Sequence record: OL362275.1
Length of the DNA stretch: 39,342 nucleotides
Strand: one strand, 5' to 3'
Origin: Escherichia phage HC12
Shown: piece by piece, positions 346 through 39,265 of the stretch
How the letters are laid out: each line of letters begins with the position of its first letter
Position numbering within the stretch: position 1 is the stretch's first letter
Made by a program: the position numbers and the translations under genes
Notes under the pieces: model-generated
Database searches by the model: none
Seen by the model: only the letters and a program-made list of their open reading frames with translations
Told to the model about the DNA's origin: nothing

Positions 346-583
346 CTATAGACTTAAGGTCTAAGACATGTTAGTCAAAGACTATATCCTCTTACACCAT
401 GGGGCCGACGATAGCTTAATCAATATTATTTCAAATTACCTATTGACTATAGGTCCAGACTATGGCCTAATAGCTTCCGTCAACACGACACGGCAACAAC
501 CGGATAGTGAAGACGCCGGGTCATCCCGGTTAAGTAGACAGCCTGATAAGTCATACGAACAACAGGCAGATGACAGAAAGTAG

Positions 584-613
584 TTGACAAGATGTACCGA
601 CTTAAAGTAGTAT
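584..613 (+). promoter_or_regulatory. Host sigma70-type early promoter, T7 A3-like
   Basis: TTGACA at 584-589, 18-bp spacer, TAGTAT at 608-613. Flanking sequence (GTACCACAT...CTCTTTAACAATCTGG) parallels the T7 A3 promoter / R0.3 region. Confidence 0.55.
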
Positions 614-738
614 GTACCACATCAACACGAAACAACGGTGACGACCAACACTGAAACGGTCTACCTGAAGTCCTCTGACTGAAGGGAATGCTCTTTAACA
701 ATCTGGATAAACTCTTAATGTGCGCCGATAGCGACTAA

Positions 739-789
739 CTACAGGGCCTTTGAGTCTACATCTGAAGGCCCTGACTGATAGTCACTAAC
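739..789 (+). promoter_or_regulatory. Early intergenic hairpin element, RNase III-type processing site candidate
   Basis: CTACAGGGCCTTT...AAGGCCCTGACTGATAGTCACTAAC: 7-bp inverted repeat GGGCCTT/AAGGCCC followed by the recurrent CTGACTGATAG motif. Lies just upstream of the first early gene. Confidence 0.4.
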
Positions 790-2078: not shown

Positions 2079-2210
2079 CCTACATAAACAGGAGAGAACC
2101 AAATCATAGCTTGACCATAACACTGACGTGATGGTACTGAGTGATAGACGAGAGGTCATCGACTGATAGGTGGCCTCAAAGATTACCACTTACATTGATA
2201 GGAGTTAACT

Positions 2211-2846: not shown

Positions 2847-2869
2847 ACTTAACTATCACTATAGGACTC
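2847..2869 (+). promoter_or_regulatory. Phage RNA polymerase promoter (ACTTAACTATCACTATAGGACTC) upstream of gene 1
   Basis: Matches the 11-copy phage promoter family (CACTATAGG core, +1 G at 2864). Confidence 0.65.
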
Positions 2870-2938
2870 AAGGTCTAAGACTCCAAGTGAAAGACCAAAG
2901 AGACTCTAAGTGAAAGACTAATAACAAGGACTTTAAGT

Positions 2939-5620
2939 ATGAGCGTCATCTCTATTGACAAGCACGACTTCTCTGATGTGTCGAACGCCATTGAGCCGTT
3001 TAACCTACTGGCTGACCACTACGGGCAAGACCTTGCAGTCAAACAGCTTCAGCTTGAGCACGAGGCATACACTGAAGGCGAGCGACGTTTCATCAAGAAC
3101 CTTGAGAGACAGACTGAGCGAGGGGAACTGGCAGACAATCAGGTCGCCAAGCCTTTGATGCAGACTCTGGTCCCTAAGATTGCGCAAGCCGTCATGGAGT
3201 GGCACGAAGGCCTAGACGGGAAGCTGTCAACCTCGCGTCCTAGTGTAGCGTTCACCATGTTGAGCACTGAAGAGAAGGCCGTAAAGGACCGCTCTATGCG
3301 CATCTCCTGTGAGTCCGCTGCGGTTATCATACTGAAGGTCATACTCTCCAAGCTGGTCAAGCCTGAAGGGATACCGATTACACCGATGGCCTCCGCGATA
3401 GGTCGCACACTTGAGGACGAAATCCGCTTCGGTCGCATCCGTGACAAGGAGAAAGAGCACTTCAAGAAGGCGATAGCTGATAACCTGAATAAGCGGACCG
3501 GGGCGTCATACAAGAAAGCCTACATGCAAGCGGTCGAGGCGTCCATGCTGGAGCAAGGCCAACTGGAAGATGCGTGGGGGACTTGGAGTCCTACAGAGGC
3601 TGTCCACGTTGGCATCAAGATGCTCGAGATTGTCATCCAGTCAACACAACTGGTCGAGCTTAAGCGGTACGGTGCTGGCAATGCAGCGGCTGATGTAGAG
3701 ATGGTCCACCTGTCAGACTTCTGGGTCAAGAAGATGGCACAACGAGGATTCAGCCTTGCGGGTATAGCTCCAGTCTACCAGCCTTGCGTCGTTCCACCTA
3801 AGCCGTGGACTGGTGTCGTAGGCGGTGGGTACTGGGCCAAAGGACGCAGACCATTACCACTGATTCGCTTAGGGTCTAAGTCTGCGGTAGCACGCTACGA
3901 AGACGTGTATATGCCTGAAGTCTATGACGCTGTGAACATCATTCAGAATACACCTTGGAAAGTGAACAAGAAGGTTCTGGAAGTGGTGAACATGGTCGAG
4001 AAGCTGAACAACACGCCTATTGATGACATCCCTCAGATGGAACCGCTGAAGCCTGAGGACTATGCGGGTGAGACTGAAGAAGAACTCAAGGCATGGAAGA
4101 AGGCTGCTGCTGGTATCTATCGCCGCGAGAAGGCCAGACAGTCACGAAGATTATCACTGAGCTTTATCGTTAACCAAGCAAACAAGTTCTCTCAGTTCAA
4201 GGCCATCTGGTTCCCGTACAACATGGATTGGCGAGGTCGTGTCTACGCTGTCCCGATGTTCAACCCTCAGGGTAACGACATGCAGAAGGGCCTCCTGACT
4301 CTGGCAGTCGGCAAGCCTATTGGTGCTGACGGTTTCAAATGGCTGAAGGTCCACGGTGCAAACTGTGCGGGTGTCGATAAAGTCACCTTCGATGAGCGCA
4401 TCAAGTGGGTGGAAGACAACCACGAAAACATCATGGCTGCTGCTAAGGCACCGATGGATAGTATTGAGTGGTGGGGCAAGTTAGACTCTCCGTTCTGTTT
4501 CCTTGCGTTCTGCTTCGAGTATGCTGGCGTAATGCACCACGGCCTGTCTTACTCTTGTTCGCTACCGATAGCGTTCGATGGGTCCTGCTCTGGGATTCAG
4601 CACTTCAGCGCGATGCTTCGTGACCACATCGGTGGACATGCAGTAAACCTGACGCCATCCGGTAAGGTCCAAGACATCTACCGCATCGTGTCTGACAGCA
4701 TTGAGGAGGAGCTTAAAGTCCTGCTGATTAACGGCACTAACAACGAGATGGTCACTCACGAGGATAAGAAAACTGGTGAGATTACCGAACGTATCAAGCT
4801 GGGGACACGAGAGCTGGCCCGTCAGTGGCTGACATACGGTATGTCACGCAAGGTCACTAAGCGTTCAGTCATGACTCTGGCATACGGGTCGAAAGAGTAC
4901 GGCTTCGCAGACCAAGTTTACGAGGACATCGTGATGCCAGCGATTGACTCAGGGTCTGGCGCTATGTTCACTGAACCAAGCCAAGCGTCTCGCTTCATGG
5001 CTAAGATGATTTGGGAAGCTGTGAGTGTGACCGTAGTTGCTGCGGTTGACGCGATGAAATGGCTTCAGGGTGCTGCCAAGCTGCTTGCTGCTGAAGTGAA
5101 GGACAAGAAGACTGGCGAAATCCTGAAGCCATGCCTTCCGGTACACTGGGTAACACCTGATGGTTTCCCTGTCTGGCAGGAATACCGCAAGAAGGATACC
5201 ACTCGTCTGAACCTGATGTTCTTAGGGTCATTCAACATTCAGCCTACCGTCAACAGAGGTACGAAGAAAGAGCTGGACAAGCACAAGCAGGAGTCAGGCA
5301 TTAGCCCTAACTTCGTCCACTCACAAGATGGTAGCCACCTGCGGAAGACTGTAGTCCACACTCACCGCAAGTATGGCGTGATGTCATTCGCAGTGATTCA
5401 CGATAGCTTCGGGACCATACCTGCTGACGCTGAGTATCTGTTCCGTGGTGTCCGTGAGACGATGGTCGAGACATACCGCGATAACGATGTGCTGCTTGAC
5501 TTCTACGAGCAGTTTGAATACCAGCTTCATGAAAGTCAGCGCGACAAGTTGCCTGAGCTTCCGAAGAAAGGTAAACTGAATATCGAAGACATCTTGTCTT
5601 CAGACTTTGCATTCGCTTAA
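2939..5620 (+). CDS. 1: DNA-directed RNA polymerase, single-subunit T7-type
   Basis: 893 aa, colinear with T7 RNAP. Conserved blocks WFPYNMDWRGRVYAV, FDGSCSGIQHFSAMLRD, HDSFGT and C-terminal DFAFA. Specificity-loop region reads RLNLMFLGSFNIQPT. Confidence 0.97.
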   Translation: MSVISIDKHDFSDVSNAIEPFNLLADHYGQDLAVKQLQLEHEAYTEGERRFIKNLERQTERGELADNQVAKPLMQTLVPKIAQAVMEWHEGLDGKLSTSRPSVAFTMLSTEEKAVKDRSMRISCESAAVIILKVILSKLVKPEGIPITPMASAIGRTLEDEIRFGRIRDKEKEHFKKAIADNLNKRTGASYKKAYMQAVEASMLEQGQLEDAWGTWSPTEAVHVGIKMLEIVIQSTQLVELKRYGAGNAAADVEMVHLSDFWVKKMAQRGFSLAGIAPVYQPCVVPPKPWTGVVGGGYWAKGRRPLPLIRLGSKSAVARYEDVYMPEVYDAVNIIQNTPWKVNKKVLEVVNMVEKLNNTPIDDIPQMEPLKPEDYAGETEEELKAWKKAAAGIYRREKARQSRRLSLSFIVNQANKFSQFKAIWFPYNMDWRGRVYAVPMFNPQGNDMQKGLLTLAVGKPIGADGFKWLKVHGANCAGVDKVTFDERIKWVEDNHENIMAAAKAPMDSIEWWGKLDSPFCFLAFCFEYAGVMHHGLSYSCSLPIAFDGSCSGIQHFSAMLRDHIGGHAVNLTPSGKVQDIYRIVSDSIEEELKVLLINGTNNEMVTHEDKKTGEITERIKLGTRELARQWLTYGMSRKVTKRSVMTLAYGSKEYGFADQVYEDIVMPAIDSGSGAMFTEPSQASRFMAKMIWEAVSVTVVAAVDAMKWLQGAAKLLAAEVKDKKTGEILKPCLPVHWVTPDGFPVWQEYRKKDTTRLNLMFLGSFNIQPTVNRGTKKELDKHKQESGISPNFVHSQDGSHLRKTVVHTHRKYGVMSFAVIHDSFGTIPADAEYLFRGVRETMVETYRDNDVLLDFYEQFEYQLHESQRDKLPELPKKGKLNIEDILSSDFAFA

Positions 5621-6167: not shown

Positions 6168-6190
6168 CCTAAACTATCACTATAGGATTA
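6168..6190 (+). promoter_or_regulatory. Phage RNA polymerase promoter (phi1.1-like)
   Basis: CCTAAACTATCACTATAGGATTA, promoter family member, +1 G at 6185. Confidence 0.7.
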
Positions 6191-6232
6191 GACTCAAGGT
6201 CATGACTCAAAGTCGTGGCCTTCATGATTAAC
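6188..6232 (+). promoter_or_regulatory. RNase III-type processing hairpin (R1.1-like)
   Basis: TTAGACTCAAGGTCATGACTCAAAGTCGTGGCCTTCATGATTAA. Same conserved element recurs at 13046 and 36348, at the positions of T7 sites R1.1, R4.7 and R18.5. Confidence 0.55.
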
Positions 6233-6263
6233 CCTAAATAAACACTACTGGAGATTTAACCGT

Positions 6264-7771: not shown

Positions 7772-7854
7772 CTAAATGTCAACCCAGTGGTCTTCGGACT
7801 GCTGGGTTTCTTTGCTTTGTGCTAGAAAGCTATCGTCTGGGCCACCAGCATGAC

Positions 7855-8600: not shown

Positions 8601-8682
8601 GTGGTGCGAGCGTAAATTTGAGGAGACAGGTAACGTCGATTACCTTCAGCTCTACAACTTATGGAAGGAGCGTGGTCTATGA
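8587..8682 (+). CDS. Hypothetical small protein (31 aa; gene 1.8 position)
   Basis: Hand-translated [31 protein letters not shown]. Stop overlaps the gp2 start. Confidence 0.3.
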
Positions 8683-8837
8683 CTGACGTAGAGAAGAAAT
8701 ACATCGTTGAGCTTGAGGGTCGCGTTCAGTCCTTCGAGGTTCCGTTGTACGCAAAGTCTCTAGAAGAGGCTACCCTGAAGTCCCAAGAGTATGAGGACGC
8801 TGGTTTTGTGGTCGGACGGATTCGTCCTGAGACCTAA
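8679..8837 (+). CDS. 2: Gp2-like inhibitor of host RNA polymerase
   Basis: Hand-translated 52-aa [55 protein letters not shown]. Aligns with T7 Gp2 ([34 protein letters not shown]). Absent from the track (under 60 aa). Confidence 0.75.
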
Positions 8838-10040: not shown

Positions 10041-10531
10041 TGAGCAAGAAGTTTAAACTGTTAGTAGATGCGCATGGCTGGCCTAGTGGGACTATAGTTA
10101 CCAAGTGTGAGAATGACCCCGTACCAGATTCAAGAATGACCCTAGTTGAGTGCCAGATTCCAGGCGCATACAAACATGGGTCTAACGGCTGCAATACTCA
10201 GCCTGAGGGTATGTGGGGAGCATGGGTCCTTAATTGGAAACTTGAGGAAATCAAGCCGGAAGAGAAACTCACTGGTGTCCAAACCACTCAAGTCCTGCCA
10301 GCTTCGAGCGTACCGCCTGTGACTTTGAAGCGTGAAGTCCTGACCATCGACAAGATTGGTGTAGGCCAGACGTTCATCGTCCATGGAAAGCCTGAAGAAG
10401 TTTACGTGAAGATTAGCAACTCACACGTCTTCAACCATAAGCATCTCCAGATGCACACCACGGACGCACAACGCTTCACCCAGCACCTGAATCTGGTTGT
10501 CGTAGAATTGGTGGTGTACAATGGTAAGTAA
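10040..10531 (+). CDS. Hypothetical protein inserted between endonuclease I and lysozyme
   Basis: 163-aa ORF; ATG overlaps the gene 3 stop (TGATG). No counterpart at this position in T7. No motif recognised. Confidence 0.65.
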   Translation: MSKKFKLLVDAHGWPSGTIVTKCENDPVPDSRMTLVECQIPGAYKHGSNGCNTQPEGMWGAWVLNWKLEEIKPEEKLTGVQTTQVLPASSVPPVTLKREVLTIDKIGVGQTFIVHGKPEEVYVKISNSHVFNHKHLQMHTTDAQRFTQHLNLVVVELVVYNGK

Positions 10532-10979
10532 GGTACAGTTCAATCCACGGTCCCGGACCGACGCTATCTTCGTACACTGTTCGGCTACCAAGCCAGAGAT
10601 GGACATCGGGGTAGAGACCATCCGTATGTGGCACAAGCAGCAAGGCTGGCTGGACGTAGGCTACCACTTTATCATCAAGCGCGATGGCACTGTGGAAGAG
10701 GGACGCCCGGTCAATGTCGTAGGGTCACACGTTAAGGACTGGAACTCACGGTCTGTAGGCGTCTGCCTTGTAGGTGGAATTGACGCTAAGGGCAAGTTTG
10801 AAGCTAACTTCACTCCGGCCCAGATGAACTCCCTGCGCAACAAGCTGGCTGACCTGAAGGACTTGTATCCTCAGGCAGAAATCAAATCACATCATGACGT
10901 AGCACCAAAGGCGTGTCCAAGTTTCGACTTGCAACGCTGGCTGTCTACCAATGAACTGGTCACTTCCGACCGAGGCTAA
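10521..10979 (+). CDS. 3.5: N-acetylmuramoyl-L-alanine amidase (T7 lysozyme)
   Basis: 152 aa, near-colinear with T7 gp3.5: TDAIFVHCSATKP, GWLDVGYHFIIKRDGTVE, HHDVAPKACPSFDL, C-terminal ELVTSDRG. Confidence 0.95.
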   Translation: MVSKVQFNPRSRTDAIFVHCSATKPEMDIGVETIRMWHKQQGWLDVGYHFIIKRDGTVEEGRPVNVVGSHVKDWNSRSVGVCLVGGIDAKGKFEANFTPAQMNSLRNKLADLKDLYPQAEIKSHHDVAPKACPSFDLQRWLSTNELVTSDRG

Positions 10980-11042: not shown

Positions 11043-11121
11043 GTCTCCATAGCTCAAACGGTAGAGCGGCGGGTCGTGATGGCCTATTGCGATTAGGGTT
11101 CGAATCCCCGTGGAGACGCCA
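11043..11121 (+). tRNA. tRNA-like element (canonical acceptor, D and T arms, encoded CCA; anticodon arm non-canonical)
   Basis: GTCTCCA...TGGAGAC perfect 7-bp acceptor stem. D arm GCTC-AAACGGTA-GAGC with G18G19. T arm with GGTTCGAATCC. Discriminator G then CCA. The 26 nt between the D and T arms do not form a clean 5-bp anticodon stem; best fold gives loop GTCGTGA (anticodon CGU, Thr) with an imperfect stem. Confidence 0.45.
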
Positions 11122-12878: not shown

Positions 12879-13043
12879 GTGTTAAAGAAACTTAAAGCTC
12901 GCTACCATCGGTTCATGTACAAATGGTGGAGCGACGAAGCAACCTGCCTGTCGAACATTCTGGGAGACCAGCGGTTCAACTCTGAGGCATGGAAGAAAGC
13001 TAACCGGAAGTTCATGTATCACTTCTTGCGTACAGACTTCTAG
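12879..13043 (+). CDS. Hypothetical small protein (54 aa, GTG start)
   Basis: GGAGGA RBS 6 nt upstream of GTG. Hand translation (M)LKKLKARYHRFMYKWWSDEATCLSNILGDQRFNSEAWKKANRKFMYHFLRTDF. Position of T7 genes 4.3/4.5. Confidence 0.45.
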   Translation: MLKKLKARYHRFMYKWWSDEATCLSNILGDQRFNSEAWKKANRKFMYHFLRTDF

Positions 13044-13045
13044 GT

Positions 13046-13090
13046 CTAGACTCAAGGTCATTCACATAGAGTGGCCTTTATGATTAGACT
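13046..13090 (+). promoter_or_regulatory. RNase III-type processing hairpin (R4.7-like)
   Basis: CTAGACTCAAGGTCATTCACATAGAGTGGCCTTTATGATTAGAC, second copy of the conserved element, upstream of the DNA polymerase gene. Confidence 0.55.
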
Positions 13091-25787: not shown

Positions 25788-25810
25788 CCTTAACTATCAC
25801 TATAGGGACT
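25788..25810 (+). promoter_or_regulatory. Phage RNA polymerase promoter (phi13-like) flanked by a 12-bp inverted repeat
   Basis: CCTTAACTATCACTATAGGGACT. AAGGGCCTATAG at 25771-25782 is the exact reverse complement of CTATAGGCCCTT at 25809-25820. Confidence 0.7.
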
Positions 25811-25839
25811 ATAGGCCCTTAAGGTTATAAGGAGACTTT

Positions 25840-36344: not shown

Positions 36345-36347
36345 GTG

Positions 36348-36390
36348 TTAGACTCAAGGTCATCGTCAGGTGGCCTTTATGGTTAACACT
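36348..36390 (+). promoter_or_regulatory. RNase III-type processing hairpin (R18.5-like)
   Basis: GTTAGACTCAAGGTCATCGTCAGGTGGCCTTTATGGTTAAC, third copy of the conserved element, at the position of T7 R18.5. Confidence 0.55.
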
Positions 36391-39105: not shown

Positions 39106-39136
39106 CGCCGTAATGGTAACAATCAACGAAAGTAAG

Positions 39137-39180
39137 ACCTAAGGTCAGTTCATAGCTGACGCTACTCTACTGACCTTAGC
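39137..39180. repeat. Inverted repeat CTAAGGTCAGT / ACTGACCTTAG (11 bp arms, 19-nt spacer) near the right end
   Basis: Exact reverse-complement arms in the sequence; non-coding right-end region. Confidence 0.5.
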
Positions 39181-39265
39181 TACTGTAGTCAAGGACTTTA
39201 GGTAACACCTTAATAGAAGCTCACTTAGGGTCATCCTACTTATTGGTCTATCCTAGTGTCGCCTG

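Follow-up and report, generated by a model that had tools for sequence, protein, structure and literature searches.

The 23-bp element directly upstream of gene 1, at 2847-2869 (+), probably works as a promoter recognized by the T7-type RNA polymerase that the phage itself encodes, and no promoter of this kind lies further to the left in the genome; our comparative sequence data suggest that the element would drive transcription of gene 1 by the gene's own product. The textbook rule for T7 is that the polymerase gene is read by the host enzyme only; the site at 2847 suggests that this rule is not universal among close relatives of T7. The most useful new piece is evolutionary evidence, namely, that the site followed two switches of promoter specificity.

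Results

The window, i.e., the whole stretch of DNA analyzed here (39,342 bp), has an ORF map spanning ocr to terminase and is thus essentially a whole (near-complete) Kayfunavirus genome. Its first 6 kb share up to 97.9% identity with K1F-like coliphages (Kayfunavirus, Studiervirinae), the best match being Escherichia phage 6925, and its gene 1 protein shows 63.8% identity to T7 RNA polymerase and 98.2% to K1F gp1. The following features were identified around gene 1:

2847-2869 (+): predicted promoter for the phage's own single-subunit RNA polymerase, with predicted start G2864 and the class-II-like initiation sequence GGACTC
2864-2938 (+): 75-nt leader of the predicted phage-promoter transcript, A/purine-rich, with AAGTGAAAGAC-type direct repeats and the Shine-Dalgarno sequence AAGGA at 2927-2931
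2939-5620 (+): gene 1, T7-type single-subunit RNA polymerase (893 aa) with the specificity loop RLNLMFLGSFNIQ
6168-6190 (+): next phage promoter downstream of gene 1 (phi1.1 analogue), found by the 21-mer scan and the weight matrix

The sequence at 2847-2869 (+), ACTTAACTATCACTATAGGACTC, spans -17 to +6 when aligned in the T7 register, with G2864 as +1. It contains the T7-group core CACTATAG, the +1 G, and a TATA melting region at -4 to -1, and the string formed by TCACTATA and GGA at 2856-2866 is in register with the T7 promoters of NC_001604. The site lies within the 97 nt that separate gene 1 from the preceding ORF, which has its stop codon at 2839-2841, and the gene 1 ATG at 2939 is 75 nt past the predicted start; the distance of 70 nt given in the earlier note holds when counted from the end of the 23-mer. 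The same note had reported a copy of the phage promoter here, and both the string and its place were confirmed, as was its membership in a family. A 21-mer scan allowing up to 3 mismatches found 10 copies in the window, all on the + strand, against 0.00 expected from 100 shuffles. Scored with a weight matrix derived from the nine remaining sites, the site at 2847 reached 32.4 bits (leave-one-out), within the range of 27-37 bits spanned by the other copies, while the best non-family position genome-wide scored 12.7 bits. The matrix added one weaker copy at 10975, bringing the total to 11 promoter sites, with nothing else above 13 bits. In its motif length (about 23 bp, -17 to +6), copy number, and confinement to the coding strand, this family agrees with the T7-group pattern of roughly 10-17 copies per genome.

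Ten of these 11 sites match the T7 positions phi1.1, 1.5/1.6, 2.5, 3.8/4c, 6.5, 9, 10, 13, 17, and OR, and the site at 2847 is the only one without a T7 counterpart. All promoters at class II positions in the window share a GGA start, and GGG is found in four of the six at class III positions. The GGA start and the non-consensus bases at +4 to +6 would mark the site at 2847 as a class-II-type promoter, which may be weak because its initial sequence, GGACTC, differs from the strong consensus GGGAGA. Elsewhere in the promoter set, a second, overlapping partial core (CACTATAGGGACTATAGG) directly follows the phi13-position promoter (25788-25815, +), and a near-perfect long inverted repeat, CTAAGGTCAGT...ACTGACCTTAG (39129-39189, both strands; -21 to -25 kcal/mol), is found close to the right end, 3′ of the phiOR-position promoter. 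Flanked by the lysozyme and primase genes and just 3′ of the weaker promoter copy at 10975, a tRNA-Thr (anticodon CGT) was detected at 11043-11121 (+) by both Rfam and ARAGORN. This stretch occurs in only 36 phage records, a Kayfunavirus subset of which some annotate the tRNA-Thr; it is absent from GW1, Ro45lw, and CR8, and Kc166A has a tRNA-Ser at the same place.

Conservation of the site was traced in GenBank genomes and in IMG/VR. Alignment of upstream regions placed the promoter 75-81 nt upstream of the gene 1 ATG in 12 of 12 diverse Kayfunavirus GenBank genomes, across which the flanking gene 1 leader has split into several divergent forms. Scanning IMG/VR with gp1 recovered 80 loci, and every one of the 21 K1F-like contigs (polymerase at least 87% identical) carried the promoter site at this same distance before gene 1. 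A motif-free test, in which an exact string of at least 14 nt had to be present both in the 160 nt ahead of gene 1 and in the 1.5 kb after it, was positive in all K1F-like IMG/VR contigs with downstream sequence (20/20) and in CR8, and in none of the 58 other loci, which are mostly T7/T3/K11-like.

The site also changes with the specificity of the polymerase. Three promoter types were found before gene 1: AACTATCAC in K1F, AACCCTCAC in Cronobacter phage GW1, which has a T3-like loop, and GGTACAC in Citrobacter phage CR8. In GW1, AACCCTCACTATAGG is present at 12 of 12 promoters, including the one before gene 1, and the specificity loop reads RLDLMFLGTFRLQ where the window has RLNLMFLGSFNIQ, with T3-like replacements of N by D and of N by R at T7 positions 748 and 756, respectively. 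The GW1-type promoter set also occurs in Eclo_IJM01 and two IMG/VR contigs; all promoters of this Kayfunavirus sub-lineage have switched from AACTATCAC to the T3-like AACCCTCAC with matching loop changes, and the AT-rich recognition loop of the GW1 polymerase differs too. CR8, from the sister genus Caroctavirus, has a polymerase that is 79% identical, yet another specificity loop, and AAGGAAGGTACACTATAGG at all 11 annotated promoters, including that at 3356-3378 before gene 1. Smaller variants were also seen: the gene 1 site of Kc166A has the CACTGTAGG flavor of the Kc166A class II promoters, and the Ro45lw group carries a T-to-A variant at -2 that is also found in T7 phi1.5 and phi1.6. Within the K1F, GW1, and CR8 types, positions -12 to -8 at the gene 1 site are the same as at the other promoters, and the loops differ correspondingly, so that by comparison the site and the specificity of its polymerase match. 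As separate observations on CR8, the promoter before gene 1 (region 3331-3400) is flanked by an 8-bp inverted repeat (AGGGCTTA ... TAAGCCCT), and its leader contains, after the promoter, a 9-bp perfect hairpin (CTTAAGGTC...GACCTTAAG) that the covariance model described below did not call.

A site rewritten in step with polymerase specificity is under selection as a promoter, and this co-variation with the specificity loop is a strong argument for a working cognate promoter. It also bears on the idea that the site at 2847 is an inactive relic or a chance copy without function. Such an idea could appeal to the non-consensus bases at +4 to +6 and to the Ro45lw annotators, who left the gene 1 site uncalled as a promoter; however, zero chance matches are expected, and the site outlived two changes of promoter specificity, changing along with all other promoters while the adjoining leader diverged into several forms. 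A relic is already strongly disfavored, and we give this idea almost no credence. What conservation proves is selection for the promoter, not selection for gene 1 dosage, because the same transcripts run on into the class II genes.

The earlier note had contrasted this arrangement with that of T7. This contrast stood insofar as no phage promoter lies right before gene 1 in T7, but it was overstated because T7, T3, and K11 carry phiOL on the same strand further upstream, ahead of the early region, and their polymerases can in principle also reach gene 1 from afar through it. The T7 and K1F-like designs differ in promoter position and strength, not in presence or absence. A phiOL-like site was sought in EcoDS1, K1F, CR44b, Ro45lw, Kc166A, GW1, CR8, and the window, and none was found; all of them have a promoter before gene 1. 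In the window, the weight matrix gave no promoter-family member above 8 bits in 1-2846, and the site at 2847 lies about 2.3 kb downstream of the early promoters, unlike a phiOL-type site, which precedes the host early promoters and is close to the terminal repeat. The sequence TTGACTATAGG at 435-457 (+) was considered as a phiOL relic and rejected, as its score was below 8 bits and it bears a closer likeness to a host-promoter -35 element. The string ATTACCTATTGACTATAGGTCCA at 435-457 partly resembles the phage promoter GACTATAGG, sits at the place of T7 phiOL, and is kept in K1F, CR44b, and PRF-SP2; the TTGACT within it may instead be a host-promoter -35 element.

Since phiOL far upstream and a promoter at gene 1 look like complementary designs, there is a second, less probable account of the selection on the site: the promoter is real and was selected as the leftmost entry point of the phage polymerase in place of phiOL, with extra gene 1 mRNA as a by-product. 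Its role would then lie in transcription-primed DNA replication (as a secondary origin), in genome entry driven by the phage polymerase, or in class II transcription. The distribution described above fits this account, in that the three phages with phiOL lack a promoter before gene 1 and the eight genomes without a phiOL-like site have one; in addition, the annotated primary origin of T3 lies just past a phage promoter adjoining gene 1. On the other hand, the leader is 61% A+T and lies outside the most A+T-rich stretches of the genome (a replication origin in the leader was rejected for its unremarkable A+T content), gene 1 and probably the next promoter would already be in the cell once polymerase exists, if T7 biology is a guide, and the spacing to the start of gene 1, fixed at 75-81 nt in every lineage, is consistent with a gene-proximal promoter. 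We consider selection as an entry point unlikely and continue to favor a promoter that serves gene 1.

The region just downstream of the promoter was analyzed for RNA structure, for which the following features are relevant:

2865-2875 (+): GACTCAAGGTC, a motif common to the 5′ arm of RNase III-type hairpins, without the matching GGCCTT 3′ arm
2141-2189 (+): canonical RNase III-type hairpin, the last one before gene 1 (35.2 bits, E = 1.9e-7; outside the training set)
6185-6234 (+): R1.1 analogue, an RNase III-type hairpin at which processed gene 1 mRNA probably has its 3′ boundary

The sequence GACTCAAGGTCTAAGAC at 2865-2881 had been likened to the recurring hairpin elements of this genome. 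The likeness was borne out at the level of the motif: GACTCAAGGTC is over-represented (16 matches with up to 1 mismatch versus 0.93 expected) and forms the 5′ arm of TTAGACTCAAGGTCA...TGGCCTTTATGATTAA hairpins, which match the RNase III sites annotated in T3. It did not extend to structure, since neither the covariance model nor folding revealed a canonical hairpin in the leader. The model, built from 11 hairpins (annotated T3 sites and window hairpins), identified seven sites in the window (731-785, 1054-1102, 1784-1830, 2141-2189, 6185-6234, 13043-13090, and 36345-36389, all +). These seven hairpins are homologous to the T3 R sites, with positions matching R0.3, R0.5, R1.1, R4.7, and R18.5 of T7/T3, and equivalents are also present in CR8, GW1, Ro45lw, and Kc166A. 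At 2850-2940, the model gave no match even at E = 10 with filters off, nor did it match the gene 1 leaders of CR8, Ro45lw, Kc166A, and GW1 (E up to 1, default filters); an R1 analogue in the gene 1 leader was on this basis rejected for the window and these four relatives. The hairpin of an R site measures about 45-55 nt; its 5′ arm is ACTCAAGGTC or CTACAGGTC and its 3′ arm GGCCTT(T)ATGATT or GGCCTGA, and at 2865-2875 only the 5′-arm motif is present.

Folding gave a similar picture. The first 82 nt of the transcript showed no significant structure relative to shuffled sequences (z = -0.05), the folding energy of a 201-nt region was ordinary (z = -0.45), and so was that of the relatives' gene 1 leaders (z from -0.1 to -2.3). 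The consensus fold of 14 distinct leaders contained only an invariant weak pairing (-4.2 kcal/mol) of GACTCAAGGTC with the ribosome-binding region, with no compensatory changes. An Rfam scan returned tRNA only, and the class II stop signal ATCTGTT occurs at chance-level frequency and is absent from the leader. With respect to primary sequence, the leader region (2863-2943, +) contains direct repeats, AGACTCCAAGTGAAAGACCAA and AGACTCTAAGTGAAAGACTAA, that are 90% alike, together with AAGAC/AGGAC units, the last of which is the Shine-Dalgarno sequence; the GACTCAAGGTC at the leader's 5′ end and the ribosome-binding region GGACTTTAAGT are complementary to each other, and neither varies among the 14 distinct leaders.

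These data make it very improbable that the conserved element is mainly an RNA processing signal, a counterpart of the RNase III site R1, with only a secondary likeness to a promoter. R1 does lie before gene 1 in T7 and T3, GACTCAAGGTC at 2865 is the 5′-arm motif of the hairpin family, and in read-through RNA the promoter core could pair with a downstream AGTGA to give a 20-bp interrupted hairpin. However, the covariance model, the ordinary folding energies, and the lack of compensatory changes in the consensus fold all argue against processing as the main role, and the bases that co-vary are the promoter specificity positions.

Discussion

How self-transcription of gene 1 would fit into the infection program depends on the surrounding early region, in which the following features were identified:

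584-613 (+): best sigma-70-like early promoter candidate, TTGACA-18-TAGTAT, by consensus match only
7781-7808 (+): strong intrinsic terminator past the ligase gene (T7 TE analogue), predicted to end the host-transcribed early unit that includes gene 1
8661-8837 (+): gp2-like inhibitor of host RNA polymerase (PHROG 1307, E = 1.2e-23)
10521-10979 (+): gp3.5-like amidase/lysozyme (PHROG 822, E = 6.9e-80)

Host promoters are annotated in the left-end region of EcoDS1 that is equivalent to 584-613. The terminator at 7781-7808 is the only strong intrinsic one in the first 9 kb, and a search for terminator-like hairpins from 1 to about 7290, which includes the stretch from the site at 2847 to gene 1, found none. 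With no terminator between the left end and gene 1, host polymerase should make the first gene 1 mRNA, as in T7; with none between the promoter and gene 1, self-transcription is the natural reading. As in the self-transcription proposed for phi1 of LUZ100, the polymerase gene follows closely on a cognate promoter of the same orientation; in the window, 75 nt separate the predicted start from the ATG, and no terminator intervenes.

In the sequence of events that we propose, host RNA polymerase would start at the left-end early promoters and read the early genes and gene 1 up to the terminator at about 7.8 kb, yielding the first phage polymerase. These first molecules would initiate at G2864, re-transcribe gene 1, and go on into the class II genes, so that the supply of polymerase mRNA may become partly self-driven, to an extent that we can only infer. 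By analogy with T7, transcription of gene 1 could persist after gp2 shuts off the host enzyme, through the phage promoter alone. The T7 gp3.5 protein inhibits the phage polymerase, and the gp3.5-like protein of the window is for this reason a likely brake on the loop, which would probably be damped later by this lysozyme in the manner of T7 class II promoters.

A more far-reaching version of this model holds that Kayfunavirus and Caroctavirus rewired the T7 program, dropping phiOL and placing the leftmost phage promoter on gene 1 as a true autocatalytic switch, with host- and phage-made gene 1 mRNAs whose different 5′ ends could be processed or translated differently. The 5′ ends would differ because the promoter core is the 5′ arm of a weak leader hairpin. 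We regard this version as quite doubtful, and the simpler proposal of self-transcription from the promoter at 2847 remains our preferred reading. Our search of the literature for Kayfunavirus transcript maps or a transcriptome paper found none. The K1F polymerase and a cognate PK1F promoter do act as a specific orthogonal pair in vivo in heterologous systems (PMC12218169).

If the proposal holds, a whole clade of coliphages, several of which are used for therapy and orthogonal expression, has a predicted self-amplifying polymerase gene, which would be useful to know for models of infection timing and for the engineering of K1F-based circuits.

The layout with a phage promoter before gene 1 is already known: it is annotated in EcoDS1, CR44b, CR8, and gh-1, and the feedback idea has been published for LUZ100 (PMC10134795). 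Because both the element and the concept were available, the site in the window adds confirmation, not discovery. The present analysis contributes three things: conservation of the site throughout the clade, the lack of phiOL, and co-variation that spans three promoter specificities.

Among these systems, EcoDS1 (NC_011042, 2244-2266; annotated as promoter "phi") and CR44b (HG818823, 1814-1836; "predicted promoter") belong to the same genus as the window and have an identical 23-mer before gene 1 at the same 75-nt spacing. CR8 (HG818824, 3356-3378; "predicted promoter") has its own promoter sequence at the position seen in the window. We found no substantive difference between these three and the window, and their annotations are likewise sequence-based. 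A Kayfunavirus genome paper of 2026 described a repeat, CTWAACTATCACTATAGG, of which one copy lies at the 3′ end of the gene just ahead of that for the polymerase (PMC13298934). In gh-1 (NC_004665), also of the Studiervirinae, the first phage promoter, the putative phi1 (939-961), comes just before the polymerase gene at 1058, as in the window; unlike the window, gh-1 has almost no early genes, and its phi1, which is a prediction only, overlaps both a host promoter and a minor early terminator that is itself predicted.

T7, T3, and K11 resemble the window in gene order, in the host promoters at the left end, and in the TE terminator past the ligase gene. They carry phiOL upstream of the host promoters and R1 before gene 1, with no phage promoter there, whereas the window shows the reverse; T7 and T3 also have the minor host promoter C before gene 1. 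A mapped precedent is the Pseudomonas phage LUZ100: ONT-cappable-seq placed the start of phi1 immediately ahead of its polymerase gene, and a positive-feedback model with ignition through host-polymerase read-through was proposed (PMC10134795). LUZ100 shares with the window a cognate promoter immediately before the polymerase gene, but LUZ100 has, upstream of it, a terminator as well as a repressor/integrase module of the MarR type, linked to a possible switch to lysogeny, whereas the window has neither terminator nor repressor there and is a strictly lytic-type genome. The same autocatalytic logic is found in the T7 "autogene" reportedly engineered by Dubendorff and Studier in 1991, in which the T7 polymerase gene was placed under a T7 promoter and is said to need lac repression and lysozyme to be tolerated. 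The autogene is artificial, whereas the arrangement in the window is a natural one within a lytic program.
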